IMG/VR virus record: IMGVR_UViG_2859827302_000001
DNA: 47,387 nt
Reading direction: 5' to 3' (one strand)
From: a virus
Taxonomy: Duplodnaviria; Heunggongvirae; Uroviricota; Caudoviricetes
A program made the translations under genes and the position numbers. Below are positions 28,865 through 47,387 of this stretch, piece after piece. The notes under the pieces were generated by a model that was not told the DNA's origin, ran no database searches, and saw only the letters and a program-made list of their open reading frames with translations. The first letter of the stretch is position 1. The number at the start of each line of letters is the position of its first letter.

Positions 28865-31418
28865 TCTTGTTATTGACCTGAGTCTGGATGCTGTCCGTTT
28901 CGATGAGCAGATGAGCCGGGTAAGGCGTCATTTTTCAGGTCTGGATACCGACGCCAGAAAAACCGCCAGTGCTGTTGAACAGGGCCTGAGCCGCCAGGCG
29001 CTGGCTGCACAAAAAGCCGGGATTTCCGTCGGGCAGTATAAAGCGGCCATGCGAACCCTGCCCGCACAGTTTACGGATATCGCCACGCAGCTTGCCGGTG
29101 GTCAGAATCCCTGGCTGATCCTGCTGCAACAGGGCGGTCAGGTGAAGGACTCCTTCGGCGGGATGATCCCCATGTTCAGGGGGCTCGCCGGTGCGATCAC
29201 CCTGCCGATGGTCGGAGTCACCTCGCTGGCGGTGGCGACAGGTGCGCTGGTGTACGCCTGGTACCAGGGAGATTCCACGCTTTCAGCGTTTAATAAAACC
29301 CTGGTTCTTTCCGGTAATCAGTCCGGACTGACTGCCGATCGTATGCTGACTCTCTCAAGAGCCGGGCAGGCAGCAGGGCTGACGTTTAACCAGGTGAGAG
29401 AGTCACTGGCAGCCCTGGTGAATGCCGGTGTGCGTGGTGGTGAACAGTTTGATGCCATCAACCAGAGTGTCGCGCGTTTTGCGTCTGCATCCGGTGTGGA
29501 GGTGGATAAAGTCGCTGAAGCCTTCGGGAAGCTGACCACTGACCCGACGTCGGGACTGATGGCGATGGCGCGCCAGTTCCGTAACGTGACGGCAGAGCAG
29601 ATTGCGTATGTTGCACAGCTGCAGCGTTCCGGAGACGAGGCCGGGGCATTGCAGGCGGCGAACGATATCGCCACGAAAGGCTTTGATGAGCAGACCCGTC
29701 GCCTGAAAGAAAACATGGGAACACTGGAGACCTGGGCGGATAAAACAGGGAAGGCATTCAAATCGATGTGGGATGCCATTCTGGATATCGGTCGTCCTGA
29801 ATCCTCAGCGGATATGCTCGCCAGTGCGCAGAAGGCATTTGATGAGGCGGATAAAAAATGGCAGTGGTACCAGAGCCGGAGCCAGCGCCGGGGAAAGACC
29901 TCCTCTTTTCGTGCGAACCTTCAGGGGGCATGGGATGACCGGGAAAATGCCCGTCTGGGTCTGGCAGCGGCCACGCTGCAGTCGGATATGGAAAAAGCCG
30001 GTGAACTGGCGGCAAGGGACCGGGCTGAGCGTGAGGCGTCACAGCTGAAGTATACCGGAGAGGCGCAGAAGGCGTATGAGCGCCTGCAGACGCCGCTGGA
30101 TAAATATACCGCCCGTCAGAAAGAGCTGAATAAGGCCCTGAAAGACGGAAAAATCCTGCAGGCGGATTACAACACGCTGATGGCGTCGGCAAAAAAGGAT
30201 TATGAATCGACGCTGAAAAAGCCGTCAGGTGTGAAGGTGTCTGCCGGTGAGCGCCAGGAAGACCGGGCGCATGCAGCCATGCTGGCGCTTGAAACCGAGC
30301 TCAGGACGCTGGAAAAACACAGCGGTGTGAATGAGAAAATCAGCCAGCAGCGCCGGGATTTATGGGAAGCGGAAAATCAGTATGTGGTCCTGAAAGAGGC
30401 CGCCACGAAACGGCAGTTATCTGAGCAGGAAAAATCCCTGCTGGCCCATGAGAAAGAAACGCTGGAGTACAAACGCCAGCTGGCTGAGCTGGGCGACAAG
30501 ATTGAACACCAGAAACGGCTGAATGAGCTGGCACAGCAGGCGGCGCGGTTTGAACAGCAGCAGAGCGCGAAGCAGGCGGCAATCAGCGCAAAAGCACGCG
30601 GACTCACCGACCGTCAGGCGCAGCGGGAGTCGGAAGAGCAGCGCCTTCGTGAGGTGTACGGTGATAATCCGGCTGCGCTGGCGAAGGCCACATCTGCACT
30701 GAAGAACACCTGGTCTGCGGAGGAGCAGCTTCGTGGAAGCTGGATGGCCGGGATGAAGTCCGGCTGGGGCGAGTGGGCGGAAAGTGCGACGGACAGTTTT
30801 TCGCAGGTTAAAAACGCGGCCACGCAGACCTTTGACGGTATTGTACAGAATATGGCAGCGATGCTGACCGGCAGCGAACAGAACTGGCGTGGTTTCACCC
30901 GTTCTGTGCTGTCCATGCTGACAGAGATTTTTCTGAAGCAGGCGATGGTGGGGATAGTCGGGAGTATCGGCAGCGCCATTGGCGGGGCTGTTGGTGGCGG
31001 CGCATCCGCGTCAGGCGGTACAGCCATTCAGGCTGCGGCGGCGAACTTCCATTTCGCGACCGGGGGATTTACGGGGACGGGGGGTAAATATGAACCTGCG
31101 GGGATTGTTCATCGCGGGGAGTTTGTCTTCACGAAGGAGGCGACCAGCCGGATTGGTGTCGGCAATCTGTACCGCCTGATGCGGGGCTATGCGGAAGGTG
31201 GTTATGTCGGCGGTGCCGGAAGTCCGGCGCAGATGCGGCGGGCGGAAGGCATTAATTTTAATCAGAACAATCACGTGGTGATTCAGAACGACGGCCCCAA
31301 CGGGCGGGCAGGGCCGCAGCTGATGAAAGCGGTGTATGAGATGGCCCGCAAGGGGGCACAGGATGAACTCCGGCTGCAGTTGCGTGATGGCGGTATGTTA
31401 TCAGGGAGCGGTGGATGA
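28845..31418 (+). CDS. H: tape measure protein gpH
   Basis: 857 aa, coiled-coil rich, lambda H-like. Confidence 0.85.
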   Translation: MSQPVGDLVIDLSLDAVRFDEQMSRVRRHFSGLDTDARKTASAVEQGLSRQALAAQKAGISVGQYKAAMRTLPAQFTDIATQLAGGQNPWLILLQQGGQVKDSFGGMIPMFRGLAGAITLPMVGVTSLAVATGALVYAWYQGDSTLSAFNKTLVLSGNQSGLTADRMLTLSRAGQAAGLTFNQVRESLAALVNAGVRGGEQFDAINQSVARFASASGVEVDKVAEAFGKLTTDPTSGLMAMARQFRNVTAEQIAYVAQLQRSGDEAGALQAANDIATKGFDEQTRRLKENMGTLETWADKTGKAFKSMWDAILDIGRPESSADMLASAQKAFDEADKKWQWYQSRSQRRGKTSSFRANLQGAWDDRENARLGLAAATLQSDMEKAGELAARDRAEREASQLKYTGEAQKAYERLQTPLDKYTARQKELNKALKDGKILQADYNTLMASAKKDYESTLKKPSGVKVSAGERQEDRAHAAMLALETELRTLEKHSGVNEKISQQRRDLWEAENQYVVLKEAATKRQLSEQEKSLLAHEKETLEYKRQLAELGDKIEHQKRLNELAQQAARFEQQQSAKQAAISAKARGLTDRQAQRESEEQRLREVYGDNPAALAKATSALKNTWSAEEQLRGSWMAGMKSGWGEWAESATDSFSQVKNAATQTFDGIVQNMAAMLTGSEQNWRGFTRSVLSMLTEIFLKQAMVGIVGSIGSAIGGAVGGGASASGGTAIQAAAANFHFATGGFTGTGGKYEPAGIVHRGEFVFTKEATSRIGVGNLYRLMRGYAEGGYVGGAGSPAQMRRAEGINFNQNNHVVIQNDGPNGRAGPQLMKAVYEMARKGAQDELRLQLRDGGMLSGSGG

Positions 31419-39820: not shown

Positions 39821-40606
39821 AGCAGTGCGACCAACAGCACTTCCGAGTCACTGGCGGCAACGCCAAAAGCGGTTAAGGTGGTAATGGGTGAAACGAACAA
39901 GAAAGCGCCCTTAAATAGTCCTGCACTGACCGGAACGCCAACAACACCAACTGCGCGACAGGGAACGAATAATACCCAAATCGCAAGCACGGCTTTCGTT
40001 ATGGCTGCGATTGCCGCCCTTGTAGATTCGTCACCTGACGCACTGAATACGCTGAACGAGTTAGCGGCGGCGCTGGGAAACGACCCGAATTTTGCGACCA
40101 CCATGACTAACGCGCTTGCGGGTAAGCAACCGAAAGATGCCACCCTGACGGCGCTGGCCGGGCTTACTACTGCGGCAGACAAGTTTCCGTATTTTACGGG
40201 GAATGATGTCGCCAGCCTGGCAACCCTGACAAAAGTCGGGCGGGATATTCTTGCGAAATCGACTGTTGCTGCCGTTATCGAATACCTCGGTTTACGAGAA
40301 CTCGGCACAAGCGGGGAGAAAATACCGTTACTCAGTACAGCGAATACCTGGACTAATCGACAAACATTCAGCGGTGGCCTTTCTGGTGAACTATCCGGCA
40401 ATGCTTCTACAGCTGCAAAATTAAAAACTGCCAGGAAAATAAGCAATGTGGCTTTTGATGGTTCCTCCGATATCACATTAAAAGCAAGTCATGTTGGTGC
40501 GTTTGCCTTAGGGAAAACAGGAAGCACCGTTGCGAATGATAAAGCAGTTGGGGTAATGCTGCCAACTTACTGATTTAGTGTATGATGGTGATTTTAAGGT
40601 GCTTGC

Positions 40607-40882
40607 GTGGCTTCCATTTCCATCAGATGCCCTTCCTGCTCCGCTACTGAAGGCGTGGTGCGTAACGGCAAAAGCACTGCCGGACATCAGCGCTATCTCT
40701 GCTCTCATTGCCGTAAAACATGGCAACTACAGTTCACTTACACCGCCTCTCAGCCCGGTACGCACCAGAAAATCATTGATATGGCCATGAATGGCGTCGG
40801 ATGTCGTGCCAGTGCACGCATTATGGGCGTTGGCCTCAACACGGTTTTACGTCACTTAAAAAACTCAGGCCGCAGTCGGTAA
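40607..40882 (+). CDS. insA: IS1 InsA
   Basis: Identical to the InsA of the 12650 copy. Confidence 0.9.
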
Positions 40883-41304
40883 CCTCGCGCATACAACCGG
40901 GCAGTGATGTGATTGTCTGCGCTGAAATGGACGAACAGTGGGGCTACGTCGGTGCTAAATCACGTCAGCGCTGGCTGTTTTACGCGTATGACAGGATACG
41001 GAGGACGGTTGTGGCGCACGTCTTCGGTGAACGCACTCTGGCCACACTGGAGCGTCTTCTGAGCCTGCTGTCGGCCTTTGAGGTCGTGGTATGGATGACG
41101 GATGGCTGGCCGCTGTATGAATCACGCCTGAAGGGAAAGCTGCACGTTATCAGCAAGCGTTACACTCAGCGCATTGAGCGACATAATCTGAATCTGAGAC
41201 AACATCTGGCAAGGCTGGGACGGAAGTCACTGTCGTTCTCAAAATCGGTGGAGCTGCATGACAAGGTCATCGGGCATTATCTGAACATAAAACACTATCA
41301 GTAA
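40801..41304 (+). CDS. insB: IS1 InsB
   Basis: 167-aa ORF. Confidence 0.85.
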
Positions 41305-41991
41305 GTTGGAGTCATTACCAGCAGTTGGATGGAACTGGAGTAGCGGAGCCTATAACGCAACTATTAGAGGTGCATCAACGTTAATTATTCATTTTTATAT
41401 GGGAGAAGGAAGTTGTCCTGCAGCTCAGTTTCGGATTAATTATAAAAATGGCGGTATTTTTTATCGTTCAGCCCGTGATGGTTATGGTTTTGAAGCCGAC
41501 TGGTCCGAATTTTACACCACCACCAGAAAACCTTCAGCAGGAGATGTTGGTGCACTGCCGTTATCTGGTGGTCAACTGAATGGTGCACTGGGTATCGGAA
41601 CAGCCAGTGCTCTTGGCGGTAATTCGATTGTATTGGGTGATAATGATACGGGCTTTAAACAAAATGGCGATGGTAATCTGGATGTTTATGCTAATAACGT
41701 CCATGTTATGCGCTTTGTCTCCGGAAGCATTCAAAGTAATAAAACCATAAATATTACGGGACGTGTTAATCCCTCGGATTACGGTAACTTTGATTCCCGC
41801 TATGTGAGAGATGTCAGACTTGGCACACGAGTTGTTCAGACCATGAAGAAAGGCGTGATGTATGAAAAATCAGGCCATGTAATCACGGGGCTTGGTATTA
41901 TCGGTGAAGTCGATGGTGATGATCCGGCAGTATTCAGACCAATACAAAAGTTAATTAACGGAACATGGTATAACGTATCGCAGGTATAATC

Positions 41992-42040
41992 ATGCAGCAT
42001 TTAAAAAACATTGTCGCAGGTAATCCAAAAACCGTTGAAC
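41992..42040 (+). pseudogene. tfa: tail fibre assembly protein Tfa, 5' fragment (16 codons) cut by IS fragment
   Basis: MQHLKNIVAGNPKTVE then IS end TGAGGTGTACTGGC. Confidence 0.5.
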
Positions 42041-42292
42041 TGAGGTGTACTGGCAATAGCGGACACTACCATTTGTTCTTTTTTAAGCAGCCATCTGATG
42101 ATATTTTTCCCTGAAGGCTGCCGGGGAGATATTCCCCAGACGAGAGTGACGACGCTGACGATTGTAGAAAATCTCAATGTATTCCCGTATTACTGAGATG
42201 GCTTCATCCCGGTTATTAAAACGATAGTGGCTCAGGCTCTCATTTTTCAGCGTTCCCCAGAAGCTTTCCATCGGAGCGTTGTCGTAACAGTT
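42041..42292 (-). mobile_element. IS3-family (IS600-like) right-end fragment, truncated by the IS66-family element
   Basis: Same sequence as 5894..6145; OrfB C-terminal 74 codons only. Confidence 0.7.
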
Positions 42293-42329
42293 GTAAGCGT
42301 GCAGCAAGAACCGTATTGACGGGGATGTG

Positions 42330-43867
42330 TTATTCAGTCGGCAGTGCTACGCGCCAGGGGAGCAGTTCGCCGACCCGGTTTATCGGCCAGTCGGCTATGA
42401 CGTCAAGGACATAGCGGAGGTAGCTTTCTGGCTCCACTCCGTTCAGTTTGCACGTCCCGATCAGGCTGTACAGCAGCGCTCCCCGCTCTCCTCCATGATC
42501 CGAACCGAAGAACAGGTAGTTTTTGCGGCCCAGACTGACCATCCGCAACGCATTTTCAGCGATGTTATTGTCCGCCTCAGCCCAGCCATCATCTGCATAG
42601 TACGTCAGCGCCGGCCACTGGTTCAGGGCGTATGCGAACGCTTTCGCCAGTTCTGAGTGTCGCGACAGGGTTTTCATCTTTTCACGCAGCCAGCTTTCCA
42701 GGGATTTCAGCAGCGGTTTCGTTTTCAACTGACGTTCGGCAAGGCGCTGCTCCGCCGTCATTCCCCTTATCTCTGCCTCGATGGCGTACAGTTCGCCGAT
42801 CCGTTTCAGCGCTTCCTCCGTCAGGGCTGACGGGGTGCGAACGTGCACATCGTGGATTTTACGGCGGGCGTGAGCCCAACAGGCGGCTTCCGTTATCCGG
42901 CCATCCCGGTACAGCTCGTTGAACCCGGCGTATGCATCCGCCTGCAGTACACCACTGAACCCCGCAAGATGGGTCTGCGGATGGATGCCTTTTCTGTCCG
43001 GGCTGTAAGCGAACCACACCGCCGGCGCCAGCGTTGACCCGGCGTTACGGTCGTCACGAACGTAGGTCCATAACCGCCCGGTCTTCGTTTTCTTATTGCC
43101 TGGCAACAGCACCGGGACAGGCGTGTCATCGCATGGAGCTTACCGTCAGTCAGCACATAATCCTGAAGCGCTTCTTCCAGCGGTGACAGTAGCCGGCAGC
43201 ATGCATCCACCCAGCCCGACAGCAGTGAACGACTCAGCTCCACGCCCTGGCGGCCGTACATTTCAGACTGGCGGTACAGCGGGGTGTGCTCTGCATACTT
43301 TGAGATCAGCACGCGGGCCAGCAGCCCCGGTCCTGCGATACCCCGCTCGATGGGCCGTGAAGGCGCGGGGGCCTGCACGATGGCATCGCACTGAGTACAG
43401 GCATGCTTTTCACGTACAGTCCGGATAACCCGGAAGACGCTGCGCATCAACTCCAGCTGTTCGGCGGCATCCTCACCCGGATAGCTCAGTGAGCCTCCAC
43501 ATTCCGGGCAGCATGACGCTGCCGGCAGCAGCCGTTTTTCATCGCGGGGGAGTGATTCGGGGAACGGTTTGCGGGTGCGGGTTTGACGCAGCGGGCGCTG
43601 CACGGCCGGGTCGTCAACCCGACCGGTAAGGGTATCACTTTCTTTCTGAAGTGCCTTCAGGTCAGCTTCCATCTGTGCGATACGACGGGAGACTTTTTCG
43701 GAGCGGCTGCCGAAGTTCATCCGGCGCAGCTTATCCAGCTGTGCCTGCAGATGGTCTATTTCGCGTTCACGCTCGTTCAGCTTTTCCAGCAGGGCACGGT
43801 TCAGCGCCTCCTGTTCGGCAAGGAGACGTTTCAGTGCATTGATATCGTCAGGAAGTGAGCTGCTCAT
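42330..43867 (-). pseudogene. IS66 family TnpC transposase, frameshifted (two overlapping ORFs)
   Basis: N-part 42893..43867 and C-part 42330..43112 are in different frames. Confidence 0.7.
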
Positions 43868-43915
43868 ACCGGGTATATTACCAGGCTCATTCAGCGTCGA
43901 CCAGGATAAAGAGGC

Positions 43916-44263
43916 TTACAACATAGTCAGGGACGTAAGCAGTCTTTTAGGCTGCCGCCAGTCGATACCTTCAAGGAGCATCGCCAGCTGTGCCGGTGTG
44001 AGGAACACTTTGCCATCCCGGGCTGACGGCCAGGCGAAGCGGCCGCGCTCCAGCCGTTTGGTCAGCAGACACAGTCCATCGCCGGTAGACCAGAGGAGCT
44101 TTACCTGACTGCCATTACGCCCACGGAAGATAAAAACGTGACCTGACATCGGAGCGTCTTTCAGCGTCGTCTGCACCTTTGCCGCCAGGCCGTTGAAGCC
44201 ATTTCTCATATCGGTGATACCGGCAACCAGCCAAATTTTGGTCCCGGAAGGTAACGGGATCAT
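43916..44263 (-). CDS. IS66 family TnpB (orf2)
   Basis: 115-aa ORF MIPLPSGTKIWLVAGITDMR... Confidence 0.75.
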   Translation of the reverse strand: MIPLPSGTKIWLVAGITDMRNGFNGLAAKVQTTLKDAPMSGHVFIFRGRNGSQVKLLWSTGDGLCLLTKRLERGRFAWPSARDGKVFLTPAQLAMLLEGIDWRQPKRLLTSLTML

Positions 44264-44661
44264 CGCTTCAGTTCCTGTATCAGCAGAGTCAGGAGCTTTT
44301 CGCTGACATTGCCATTGAAGCGGAGCGTCCCGTGCCGGAACGTTACCTCACAGCTGATACTGAGGGTTTCCGGATCCTCTGCGAGCGATTCTGGCTGTTC
44401 GGCAGCTGCATCGAGAGTCACAGGAAGTAGCTGGGGGCTCTCTGAAGAAGGTAATAGCAGCTTTCCCTCGCGCCATTGTTGTCGCCATTTGAACAACAGA
44501 TTGGCGTTAATGCCATTTTCAAGAGCAAGTTTTGAGATGGATATCCCGGGTTCACAGGAGGCAGCAACGAGCTGCTGTTTAAATTCGGGAAGATAATTAG
44601 GGCAGCCTTTTCGCCTGCCGGGATTCACATTTTTCTGCATATCTGACACTTTGGTTCCCAC
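44260..44661 (-). CDS. IS66 family TnpA (orf1)
   Basis: 133-aa ORF, first in operon. Confidence 0.7.
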   Translation of the reverse strand: MGTKVSDMQKNVNPGRRKGCPNYLPEFKQQLVAASCEPGISISKLALENGINANLLFKWRQQWREGKLLLPSSESPQLLPVTLDAAAEQPESLAEDPETLSISCEVTFRHGTLRFNGNVSEKLLTLLIQELKR

Positions 44662-45086
44662 TACTTATTTGGTGGACACCACTTTGTCTAATTCGTCAGA
44701 TTCTGACCAGACGGTTCAGGCTGTACGCTTACGCCTGCGCCGCATTGCGTATTACACAGCTTTTTGTAGATATATTTCCAGGCAGGCAGTGAAGAAGGTA
44801 AAACATGGAAATGGAATCAAATTGACCATGTAACGCCGCGGGATAAGGTTCAAAAACATCATGGCTAATTTTATGTTTAATTTTTGATTCCCCAGCCCTT
44901 GTAGATGCCGCGTTCAGACTAGCTTCGTTCAAATCCATTAAAGATATCAGACTACTCTCAGGTACGTGAGTAAGGTAAAACCCAGTTCCAACACCAATAT
45001 CCAGATGGTTGTTACCTACATGTTCCAGAAAGTGTGGAAGAAGGTGTTCCTTTGTAGGACATCCCCATGCAGGTAATGACTCCAAC

Positions 45087-45464
45087 TTATTGATAGTGTT
45101 TTATGTTCAGATAATGCCCGATGACTTTGTCATGCAGCTCCACCGATTTTGAGAACGACAGCGACTTCCGTCCCAGCCGTGCCAGGTGCTGCCTCAGATT
45201 CAGGTTATGCCGCTCAATTCGCTGCGTATATCGCTTGCTGATTACGTGCAGCTTTCCCTTCAGGCGGGATTCATACAGTGGCCAGCCATCCGTCATCCAT
45301 ATCACCACGTCAAAGGGTGACAGCAAGCTCATAAGACGCCCCAGCGTCGCCATAGTGCGTTTACCGAATACGTGCGCAACAACCGTCTTCCGGAGCCTGT
45401 CATACGCGTAAAACAGCCAGCGCTGGCGCGATTTAGCCCCGACGTATCCCCACTGTTCGTCCAT
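45087..45464 (-). CDS. insB: IS1 InsB
   Basis: ORF track gives the 125-aa part after an internal Met. Confidence 0.8.
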
Positions 45465-45508
45465 TTCCGCGCAGACGATGACGTCACTGCCCGGCTGTAT
45501 GCGCGAGG

Positions 45509-45784
45509 TTACCGACTGCGGCCTGAGTTTTTTAAGTGACGTAAAATCGTGTTGAGGCTAACGCCCATAATGCGTGCAGTTGCCCGGCATCCAACGCCAT
45601 TCATGGCCATATCAATAATTTTCTGGTGCGTACCGGGTTGAGAAGCGGTGTAAGTGAACTGCAGTTGCCATGTTTTACGGCAGTGAGAGCAGAGATAGCG
45701 CTGATGTCCGGCAGTGCTTTTGCCGTTACGCACCACCCCGTCAGTAGCTGAACAGGAGGGACAGCTGATAGAAACAGAAGCCAC
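45509..45784 (-). CDS. insA: IS1 InsA
   Basis: [23 protein letters not shown]... Confidence 0.9.
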
Positions 45785-46008
45785 TGGAGCACCTCAAAAA
45801 CACCATCATACACTAAATCAGTAAGTTGGCAGCATCACCCCCCATGCAAGCCGATTTGATACTCCCAAAACCCACCAGTCATAAAGCTTTAGGGTAAGTG
45901 GTGTGTAAATTTTAGCCCCATCATCTGTGTTTTTTTTCATTGATTTCACCATGTTATGGTTTTATTTGTGAATTAAATCAATTATGGCGATGAATTACAA
46001 GGGGTTAA

Positions 46009-46266
46009 ATGCTGCCGCAGCATAGCGATATTGAAATAGCCTGGTATGCTTCGATACAGCAGGAGCCGAATGGCTGGAAGACCGTCACCACACAGTTCTA
46101 TATCCAGGAATTCAGTGAGTATATTGCGCCACTGCAGGATGCTGTAGATCTGGAAATCGCAACGGAGGAAGAAAGATCGTTGCTGGAGGCATGGAATAAA
46201 TACCGGGTATTAGTGAGTCGGATTGATATAAATACAGCCCCGGATATCGTATGGCCTGAGCTGTGA
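46009..46266 (+). pseudogene. tfa: tail fibre assembly protein C-terminal fragment
   Basis: [48 protein letters not shown] matches lambda Tfa C-terminus; upstream sequence unrelated. Confidence 0.55.
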
Positions 46267-46276
46267 TTAAACGGAA

Positions 46277-46822
46277 TTATGTGTGAGATGAATTATAAAT
46301 AATTTCAGAGTGAAATTTGGTAATGAATGTGGAGTCATCAGGAATGTCATGCAGTACCAATGCATGAGCTCCTATTTTTACATTATTCCCTATATGCACT
46401 TTGCCACCAAGGATGGTGGCGTTACAGCCAATGGTTACATTATTTCCTATGACAATATCCATATCATTAAATTCACCGCGAAGTCCAATAGTTACCCCAG
46501 GCTTAATTGAACAATTTTCACCTATTGTAACTTTGTGACCGATAACAACGCCATTGAGATAAGATATGTCGAACCCTTTACCAATATTTACAGTTAAGGG
46601 AACGGTTACATTGTATTTATCAAGAATGAAGCGTTCTATTTTTCCTGCAATCTTTCGCCGGTATCCGCCTTTATCAAAAAGATATTTTGCTATGCGCCAC
46701 CAAAATAAATAACGTGATCTTCTGTGTTTTATTGCGCGAACAATTGCTTTTCGCCAGGAGAAAGGGCGTTTACAACCTATTACTTCATAGTGTATACACT
46801 TTTTAAGTTCACTAATATTCAT
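46277..46822 (-). CDS. hexapeptide-repeat (left-handed beta-helix) acetyltransferase, AT-rich cargo gene
   Basis: Repeated [LIV]GxxxxIGxN hexapeptide pattern (VVIGHKVTIGENCSIKPGVTIG...VIGNNVTIGCNATILGGKVHIGNNVKIGAHALV). Confidence 0.7.
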   Translation of the reverse strand: MNISELKKCIHYEVIGCKRPFSWRKAIVRAIKHRRSRYLFWWRIAKYLFDKGGYRRKIAGKIERFILDKYNVTVPLTVNIGKGFDISYLNGVVIGHKVTIGENCSIKPGVTIGLRGEFNDMDIVIGNNVTIGCNATILGGKVHIGNNVKIGAHALVLHDIPDDSTFITKFHSEIIYNSSHT

Positions 46823-47138
46823 ATATCTATTATTCAGTAAAGATAATTCTGTAACTTATTATTATATTAGGTTTAATGGGCTTTTTCTACAGTTTACTGT
46901 ATTACTCTCACGCCGGAGCAATAGGCACAGGCCGGACGACAAATTGCATCAGGAGTTTCTCGCCAGAAGGTGGTGATCATCTATGATGTTGGCGTATCGA
47001 CTTTGTATAAGAAGTTTCCGGTCGGAGATGAATGAAACCGTAGCACGTCGTATGCAAGAACGTGCCACGGCTGGCTGGCGAACTTTCGATAGTGCGAGTA
47101 TTGAATGATTTCCAGCCGTTACCGATTTTACGTGTTAA

Positions 47139-47387
47139 TTAGTGAAAAAACCACTCGTCAGCAGACTTCCAGGTATCTTTCAGAGTCTCCTGAACAAAAG
47201 TTTTAGCTGAATCTTTATCGGCGGTGCGCGTAACAGAAAGGCCATCGTTGCTGGTGGCTTTTACGATCACCTCTACATCGTCATAACGTTTACTGATGCG
47301 TCGGGTTAATTCTTCCTTTAACGCATCCACAGCACCGTTTGGCATTTTAGTGATTTTTTCTTTAGCGATACAGATCTCAACACGCAT
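47139..47387 (-). CDS. DinI-family protein
   Basis: 82 aa, ends with ...TWKSADEWF like DinI (...TWESADDWF); start codon is the last triplet of the window. Confidence 0.7.

Follow-up and report, generated by a model that had tools for sequence, protein, structure and literature searches.

The analyzed window is a stretch of 47,387 nucleotides of viral DNA (Caudoviricetes; IMG/VR record IMGVR_UViG_2859827302_000001), and the subject of this work is two neighboring genes at its right end, one encoding a hexapeptide-repeat acetyltransferase (46277..46822, minus strand) and the other a DinI-like protein (47139..47387, minus strand). We consider the last 1.4 kb of the window to be the right, attR-proximal end of a defective lambdoid prophage riddled with insertion sequences (ISs). 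The initial annotation of this end presented the two genes as terminal cargo of the prophage and as a pair that may affect host physiology or phage-host signaling. It lacked two features described below, an invertase pseudogene that lies on the opposite strand in the 316-bp gap between the genes, and a promoter-like site belonging to the acetyltransferase gene itself. In close relatives of this prophage, host genes directly follow dinI, namely prfC in enterotoxigenic Escherichia coli (ETEC) H10407 and mlrA/btsS in B19374 and in the IMG/VR contig L050. Since host genes are found after dinI at two integration sites, both genes are indeed terminal prophage cargo. Contig L050 represents the same prophage lineage, its acetyltransferase, DinI-like, and short Tfa-like proteins being identical to those of the window.

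The acetyltransferase gene is an intact open reading frame (ORF) of 181 codons with an ATG start and runs opposite to the late tail genes. It has 36.1% GC (28% at third codon positions), compared with 52.8% on average in the window (standard deviation 5.1% over 546-bp segments). As high an AT content is reached by only 0.2% of such segments, and the ten segments with the highest values all fall within 46101-46601, on or beside this gene. The AT richness remarked on in the initial annotation is thus borne out, the gene being the most AT-rich 546-bp stretch of the window. The best sigma-70-like promoter candidate in the region (46861..46889, minus strand; TAGAAA, a 17-nt spacer, and TATAAT, with 10 of 12 positions matching the consensus) ends 38 bp ahead of the acetyltransferase ATG.

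Family placement of the acetyltransferase

Both the Pfam score and the predicted fold place the protein in the hexapeptide-repeat (left-handed beta-helix) acyltransferase superfamily, as was initially proposed. Pfam Hexapep (PF00132) matches it at 50.6 bits (cut-off 27). The AlphaFold2 (AF2) model built from a 75-sequence alignment has a predicted local distance difference test (pLDDT) score of 91.1 and shows a left-handed beta-helix preceded by four N-terminal helices; it supersedes an earlier run with 31 sequences, in which the score was 68.8 and the beta-helix was too uncertain. The top Foldseek matches of the model are all beta-helix acetyltransferases, the best of them CysE structures with query-normalized template modeling (TM) scores of 0.70-0.77 and 26-30% identity. 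Glycine and hydrophobic residues follow a conserved pattern in the beta-helix and in the acetyl-CoA-binding coils. The only full-length family match is to PHROG 2154, a phage protein family without an assigned function (E 2.8e-77, residues 1-180 against positions 4-184 of the 185-position profile). The best NCBIfam matches, to EpsC, CysE, and WcaB, are all far under the cut-offs. Assignment to the colanic-acid WcaB or EpsC-type enzymes was rejected, the scores being 85.1 bits for EpsC (curated cut-off 150) and 60.4 and 59.4 bits for the two WcaB models (cut-offs 196 and 194.65).

RefSeq names the product "serine acetyltransferase". This name agrees with the closest solved structures and with the best curated-family similarities, and the arrangement of a few N-terminal helices followed by a beta-helix is likewise that of CysE, EpsC, and WcaB. 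Taken literally, the name describes a CysE isozyme (serine O-acetyltransferase, EC 2.3.1.30) that boosts cysteine synthesis. We consider this explanation extremely improbable, and the assignment was rejected because the protein fails the score, motif, and domain tests. The CysE equivalog model TIGR01172 matches at 76.9 bits against a cut-off of 210.65, and NF008349 at 52.9 bits against 397. A Pfam search of the protein found no SATase_N (PF06426) domain. Solved serine acetyltransferases, at 242-336 amino acids, greatly exceed the 181 of this protein, and the alignment reaches CysE residues from about 110 to 250 only; the first ~90 residues of CysE and its C-terminal tail are absent, the C-terminus reading …YNSSHT rather than the tail ending in Ile that binds CysK. 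In published CysE structures, an Asp-His motif is catalytic and an Arg-His pair binds serine. The former (DHATG; His158 in E. coli numbering) aligns with Ser-Tyr (…DISYLNG…) and the latter (GDRHPK) with Met-Asp (…NDMDIV…). Unlike CysE, the protein is also phage-borne and syntenic with the tail gene tfa.

Thus, Tyr88 occupies the position of the catalytic His of CysE. The aligned His is kept in all other family members examined and in remote relatives, and Tyr is restricted to the subclade of the window, which comprises the lambdoid and P1-like copies and the sequences P0006-P0015, relatives down to 53% identity. This restriction would fit a scenario in which the subclade had lost its general base and become catalytically dead or re-purposed, being retained for a non-enzymatic role such as binding. 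Two observations make such a scenario very unlikely, in addition to the conserved beta-helix and acetyl-CoA-binding coils. First, the dN/dS ratio between lambdoid and P1-like copies is 0.07-0.12 (at dS of 0.4-0.7), and the subclade is accordingly regarded as being under strong purifying selection; therefore, the protein does something that is selected for. Second, some beta-helix N-acetyltransferases function without a catalytic base, so that loss of the His is no proof of lost activity. We regard the protein as an intact member of a recurrent phage family that has been left uncharacterized and is mis-annotated. If this reading of PHROG 2154 is right, the RefSeq name "serine acetyltransferase" is a systematic annotation error to be corrected.

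A mobile tail-fiber cassette next to dinI

A contiguous block of 2.2 kb is common to the lambdoid prophage of B19374 (locus L002, 6550-8765) and a P1-like plasmid (locus L003, 5373-7599), with 86% nucleotide identity. It includes the last ~340 residues of the tail fiber, tfa, the acetyltransferase gene, and ~75 bp 5' of the acetyltransferase ATG. The fibers are 80% identical over a 420-residue alignment, with unrelated N-terminal parts, and the Tfa proteins are 84% identical. The outer edge of the block corresponds to position ~46896 of the window, and the candidate promoter falls within it; therefore, the acetyltransferase gene carries its own promoter wherever the cassette moves. From this comparison, the conserved partner of the acetyltransferase is judged to be the cassette of tail-fiber tip and tfa, not dinI, and the cassette is exchanged between phages of unrelated types. 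In the window only a remnant is left (46132..46896), in which the acetyltransferase gene and its promoter are accompanied by no more than the final 45 codons of tfa, and it is at position 46132 that the match to ETEC H10407 and B19374 begins. Other sequence now stands in place of the fiber tip and the bulk of tfa. With only these 45 codons surviving, the local copy of the cassette has lost its cognate fiber tip.

Just beyond the edge of the cassette, a pin-type (pinE-like) invertase gene is represented by a 3' stump (46907..47108, plus strand). The last ~200 nucleotides survive, with ~90% identity to the 3' end of intact pinE. The translation reads LTPEQ, a stop codon, AQAGRQIASGVSRQKVVIIYDVGVSTLYKKFPVGDE, and a second stop codon; only the C-terminal helix-turn-helix (HTH) part is left, and an intact catalytic N-terminal resolvase domain of a Pin/Hin/Gin/Cin serine invertase was not found in the stump. 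RefSeq annotates it as a partial HTH pseudogene in relatives. In locus L014, where the arrangement is intact, the order is tfa, inverted tfa', inverted fiber', and pinE. The stump shows that the acetyltransferase and dinI genes became neighbors by replacement. In an ancestral prophage, the cassette replaced the alternative (invertible) fiber segment together with the 5' two-thirds of the pin gene. The genomic position is that of the invertible fiber segments of e14, P1, and Mu, switched by Pin, Cin, and Gin, respectively, with the difference that here the acetyltransferase has taken the place of the alternative fiber genes and of most of the invertase, and no inversion switch is left.

Both plasmid-type loci that were examined are P1-like, with darA and lydA-type holin genes; one is a plasmid and the other is chromosomal. 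In both, the acetyltransferase gene is convergent to and overlaps the tfa (U) gene, and the annotated order is tfa, acetyltransferase, ~1 kb of unannotated DNA, and the holin/darA genes. No invertase or alternative fiber genes are annotated between the acetyltransferase and holin/darA, in the slot that we take to be occupied by cin/Sv'/U' on the P1 map. The cassette in P1-like plasmids has no adjoining dinI. As a separate observation, the ~1 kb between the acetyltransferase promoter and the holin gene (~7600-8548 in L003, the P1-like plasmid pTA13-2, and likewise in L004) is GC-rich; this spacer contains no convincing ORF, and a search for an invertase remnant beside the acetyltransferase in P1-like plasmids gave no nucleotide match to the pin stump.

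The frequencies of the two genes also differ. Among 5426 complete E. coli genomes, the acetyltransferase gene is present in 91 (65 chromosomal places and 27 on plasmids of ~90-370 kb), always on prophages or phage-plasmids; hence, it is not a chromosomal housekeeping gene. The dinI gene is present in 1732 of the same genomes, in up to five copies, and so is ~19 times commoner. With the pin stump between the genes and the fiber/tfa cassette as the actual partner, the specific functional pair of the initial annotation does not stand, and we conclude that acetyltransferase and dinI are not dedicated to each other.

A related possibility is that dinI and the acetyltransferase gene form one SOS-induced transcription unit, both being switched on by LexA cleavage at prophage induction. 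Both genes are read in the same direction, dinI being the first of the two, and nothing resembling a terminator separates them. The order of dinI, cargo, and acetyltransferase recurs with diverged acetyltransferases (in Citrobacter phage phiNP and in loci L099, L100, L102, and L105), being seen in three acetyltransferase lineages, and dinI of Gifsy phages heads a LexA-controlled operon (PMC3121763). Against this, the oppositely oriented invertase pseudogene in the 316-bp spacer marks the juxtaposition as a replacement scar, the cassette has its own promoter, the acetyltransferase occurs without adjoining dinI in P1-like plasmids and in P2/Mu-type phages, and dinI is far commoner. A common SOS-induced unit is therefore improbable for the window, less so than an inactive enzyme.

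The DinI-like gene itself is complete and encodes 82 amino acids, in agreement with the initial annotation, and is the last gene before the right attachment site. The protein matches Pfam DinI (PF06183) at 67.7 bits (cut-off 24.2) and PHROG 189, "RecA filament binding protein DinI", at 3e-30. The DinI fold is supported by an end-to-end alignment of residues 1-81 with E. coli DinI (1GHH, E 1e-11), and the C-terminal WxSADxWF helix is kept (tWeSADdWF, compared with tWkSADeWF in 1GHH). The NCBIfam equivalog PRK10597 gives 68 bits against a cut-off of 111, which is too low for orthology to chromosomal dinI, and the RefSeq product name is "DinI-like family protein". By these matches, we take the gene for a typical prophage paralog of dinI rather than the chromosomal ortholog.

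The dinI ATG is formed by the final three bases of the window; therefore, the promoter lies outside it. A search of the window for LexA boxes returned a single site, at 30909, which is within chance expectation, and none near the window end. The LexA box upstream of dinI was found in relatives. In H10407 (L001), two perfect CTGT-N8-ACAG boxes bracket a TTGACA promoter no more than 70 bp from the dinI ATG. Both B19374 (L002) and L050 have a box with one mismatch over the -35 element and a perfect box ahead of the ribosome-binding site; in L050, TTGACA is overlapped by CTGG-N8-ACAG and the perfect box is CTGT-N8-ACAG. Control of prophage dinI operons by LexA has been shown experimentally in Gifsy phages (PMC3121763). 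The gene would thus encode a RecA-filament-binding modulator, made from a LexA-repressed promoter just beyond the window, as in many lambdoid prophages. With E. coli DinI and its lambdoid, Gifsy, and 186-type homologs it shares the fold family, the WxSADxWF helix, and, in close relatives, the upstream LexA boxes. This part of the locus is already known biology and adds nothing new. A difference is that Gifsy dinI heads an antirepressor operon (PMC3121763), whereas in the window the gene comes last, at attR. The sole candidate for a small Gifsy-type antirepressor downstream of dinI, a 39-codon GTG-started ORF antisense to the pin stump, is not credible and was rejected. Several genomes carry in RefSeq a 31-residue "capsid protein" opposite the dinI 3' end (8916-9011 in L002, corresponding to ~47047-47142 of the window), which looks spurious.

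Possible function of the acetyltransferase

The family was sampled in 104 loci from RefSeq, species-representative genomes, IMG/VR, and public assemblies, and neighbors were scored by profile searches. A convergent tfa gene lies within 40 bp of the acetyltransferase stop codon in 54 of the 72 viral contigs with enough flanking sequence, and in two further loci the acetyltransferase gene abuts a fiber gene directly. This synteny extends to members that are 36-45% identical to the protein of the window and covers phages with lambdoid, P1-like, and P2/Mu-type tail modules. Thus, in Hafnia phage yong2 the family gene, sat, is convergent to tfa, followed by the fiber gene, and in phage vB_EcoM-613R2 the order is sat, tfa, and Stf. 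In Citrobacter phage phiNP (L128, 241-1835), ddi (DinI-like), hicA, hicB, and sat are closely spaced on one strand, with a convergent tfa next to them; this could possibly be an SOS-controlled cargo operon that includes a toxin-antitoxin pair. Pairwise identities of the acetyltransferases and the adjacent Tfa proteins are correlated (Spearman 0.545, Mantel p ≤ 0.0005, 18 non-redundant pairs).

Other family members reside in P2/186-like prophages, at the end that carries the integrase, or are orphan genes of enterobacterial chromosomes. Among full-length chromosomal relatives are Pantoea-type proteins (L024, L130, and L131) with 36-40% identity (E ~1e-35) and common N-terminal FSW…FWWR motifs. 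In L130 (7001-7624) and L131 (7001-7618), the family gene is directly upstream of the lipopolysaccharide (LPS) core operon waaQ-waaG-waaP-GT8-waaY-waaZ-waaL; in L024 (2556-4116), a divergent pair of paralogs precedes the same waaQ operon, seen as far as the waaY-like kinase, where the locus ends. We take the position at the waaQ operon to be the strongest contextual clue to the function of the family. Another chromosomal relative is embedded in a nonulosonic-acid polysaccharide cluster, which includes NeuB and PseB/C/F/G-like genes and pyruvyl transferases. As a side observation, the orphans of Citrobacter, Pluralibacter, Pseudocitrobacter, Enterobacter, and Intestinirhabdus (L015-L020) are 48-51% identical to the protein of the window and keep the catalytic His; they are single genes at various places in the chromosome, away from phage genes, and one of them lies beside copA and cueR.

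Relatives in LPS and polysaccharide loci, kinship with WcaB and EpsC, orientation against the late genes, and a separate promoter together point to a cytoplasmic acetyltransferase of envelope glycans, and the AT-rich composition, typical of a "moron" gene, fits this model. Surface-polysaccharide modification, suggested in the initial annotation, accordingly stands as the best-supported function, at the level of the family and by virtue of the LPS and polysaccharide loci of the relatives. Tail fibers of the accompanying types commonly use the LPS core as a receptor, which makes receptor masking the simplest model. We therefore favor, with about an even chance of its being right, a lysogenic-conversion enzyme that acetylates LPS or another surface glycan and thereby masks a phage receptor. 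The enzyme would belong to the CysE/WcaB/EpsC clade of acetyl-CoA-dependent transferases, with a left-handed beta-helix of the trimeric type, and its own promoter would most likely drive expression in the lysogen. The proposed acceptor is a sugar, either of LPS (core or O-unit) or of another envelope polysaccharide, which would be acetylated during synthesis on the cytoplasmic side. The masked receptor would no longer serve phages with a matching fiber, leading to superinfection exclusion and to less re-adsorption of progeny phage.

A further extension of this model, possible but rather doubtful, is that fiber cassettes of temperate enterobacterial phages carry a matched "receptor-editing" CysE-like enzyme that acetylates the LPS core or glycan bound by the co-transferred tip, so that specificity and self-exclusion would move as a unit. 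The Tyr residue would then mark a changed acceptor or chemistry, such as N-acetylation or base-independent catalysis.

The main competing explanation is that the acetyltransferase is cargo with an intracellular, non-glycan target, acting in anti-phage defense or counter-defense or acetylating a small molecule (a xenobiotic, an antibiotic, or a metabolite), the place after tfa being merely a permissive slot for accessory genes. The same "moron" traits (AT richness, a separate promoter, a terminal location in the late operon or the prophage) would be expected of such cargo; in some prophages the gene lies beside the integrase gene or beside accessory genes such as hicAB or DUF4760 rather than tfa, and there is remote NCBIfam similarity to Vat and CatB-type xenobiotic acetyltransferases. 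The latter matches, like those to LacA and Maa, are weak and cover generic beta-helix coils only, the best ones being to the CysE, EpsC, and WcaB clade. No defense family was matched when the acetyltransferase and the DinI-like protein were scanned against PADLOC-DB v2 (E ≤ 0.01), the chromosomal relatives reside in LPS-core and polysaccharide clusters and not in defense islands, and the synteny with tfa is retained even where the tfa genes are of very different types. A non-glycan target is thus unlikely, though less so than a joint SOS unit with dinI.

Several observations weigh against acetylation of a surface glycan as a means of receptor masking. Fiber and enzyme types are also shuffled, with some pairs showing 61% identity in the acetyltransferase and 34% in Tfa, and the tfa linkage could reflect a permissive cargo slot and not a functional tie. 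Only one clade of chromosomal relatives is at the waa locus, others being orphans beside unrelated genes. The replacement of the catalytic His by Tyr in the subclade of the window, with His in every other member examined, means that the activity or chemistry of this subclade may differ. As no terminator between dinI and the acetyltransferase gene was found, SOS read-through is possible. In the window itself, the cognate fiber tip has been lost and the prophage is defective, so that the logic of receptor matching no longer applies locally. Two papers mention the gene: its presence in a P1-like phage-plasmid was left unexplained (PMC9603915), and in Citrobacter phage phiNP it was listed as a putative "fitness" gene with its role unstated (PMC6456863). 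Literature searches returned no described function for the acetyltransferase and no link to superinfection exclusion, P2 hotspots, or defense.

A parallel to the proposed glycan modification is provided by NeuO of prophage CUS-3 from E. coli K1. This polysialic-acid O-acetyltransferase acts on the K1 capsule and is said to mask the receptor in the way proposed here (PMC3046976). Both proteins are prophage-encoded soluble acetyltransferases with hexapeptide repeats, and NeuO modifies a surface polysaccharide of the lysogen. We take NeuO to belong to a different, LacA/Maa-like beta-helix subfamily, and its gene in CUS-3 is presumably close to the receptor-binding tail genes, as is the acetyltransferase gene here. 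No NeuO chain was among the 55 Protein Data Bank sequence matches of the acetyltransferase at E ≤ 1e-3. A difference is the phase-variable 5' heptanucleotide repeat of NeuO; a search of 45841-47387 for tandem repeats that could support such phase variation found none.

Other examples are the serotype-converting O-antigen acetyltransferases Oac of phage Sf6 and OafA/OafB of Salmonella, where a temperate phage acetylates host LPS and so changes adsorption and serotype, which is the logic proposed here. These proteins are integral-membrane AT3 acyltransferases acting on the periplasmic side (PMC7448272 for the family), whereas the acetyltransferase of the window is predicted to be a soluble cytoplasmic beta-helix protein. 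In addition, their genes lie near int/att, and the acetyltransferase gene lies within a tail-fiber cassette.

The linkage to tail fibers and the relatives at LPS loci make a testable case for a variant of lysogenic conversion. If the proposed function is true, PHROG 2154 would be a new class of lysogenic-conversion enzymes, common but unstudied, in which a glycan-editing enzyme travels with fiber tips among lambdoid, P1-like, and P2/Mu-type phages. This would matter for the diversity of serotypes and LPS among E. coli and Shigella strains and for the prediction of phage host range and resistance, as relevant to phage therapy and to P1-like resistance plasmids. The local biological impact is probably small, as the prophage of the window is defective and the cassette is broken.

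Decay of the prophage end

The features to the left of the acetyltransferase gene illustrate this decay. At a distance of 10 bp from the gene and convergent with it lies a short tfa-like ORF of 85 codons (46009..46266, plus strand), in which a Caudo_TAP C-terminal domain is joined to an unrelated N-terminus. The Pfam Caudo_TAP match covers profile positions 75-128 of 131, that to PHROG 2341 is full-length, and L050 carries the identical ORF. A hairpin at 46347..46367 (plus strand), 80 bp past the tfa stop codon and within the 3'-terminal part of the acetyltransferase gene, is the sole terminator-like site in 45841-47387. Late tail transcription could stop here; the support is weak, as the site is no more than shuffled sequence yields.

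Left of the cassette remnant, further AT-rich cargo (~40-42% GC) is a gene for a class I S-adenosylmethionine-dependent methyltransferase (44729..45952, minus strand; Pfam Methyltransf_12/25/11), which is split by an IS1 copy into 44729-45071 and 45840-45952. This IS1 (45072..45839, minus strand) has the InsA and InsB ORFs and is flanked by a perfect 9-bp target duplication, CCCCATGCA; removal of the element and of one copy of the duplication restores the reading frame. Next to the left, a tfa gene is cut after ~16 codons by a fragment of an IS3-family (IS600-like) transposase, followed by an IS66-family element, the whole occupying 41993-44661. In the IS66-family element (42330-44661), the transposase is split into two ORFs, whereas in L050 it is intact (512 amino acids). 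Contig L050 has the same IS1 insertion in the methyltransferase gene and the same IS66 element.

Further left in the prophage are Lom and a lambda-type side tail fiber, whose gene is interrupted by another IS1 copy (40552..41319; target duplication AGCAGTTGG). The L050 fiber is uninterrupted at this point, and the extra IS1 thus indicates that the prophage of the window is more decayed than its L050 relative. Among complete RefSeq E. coli genomes, no record covers at least 80% of the whole end region contiguously. The load of IS1, IS600-like, and IS66 elements suggests a Shigella-like host, which is unconfirmed.

An Rfam scan of 45841-47387 detected no RNA element that would explain the region, the matches being a very weak partial one to CssrB and a sub-threshold one to IS009. 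The latter (46032-46235, plus strand; 101.5 bits against a gathering score of 117, E 9e-24) overlaps the tfa remnant and is probably explained by conservation of prophage tfa sequence, not by an RNA gene of its own.

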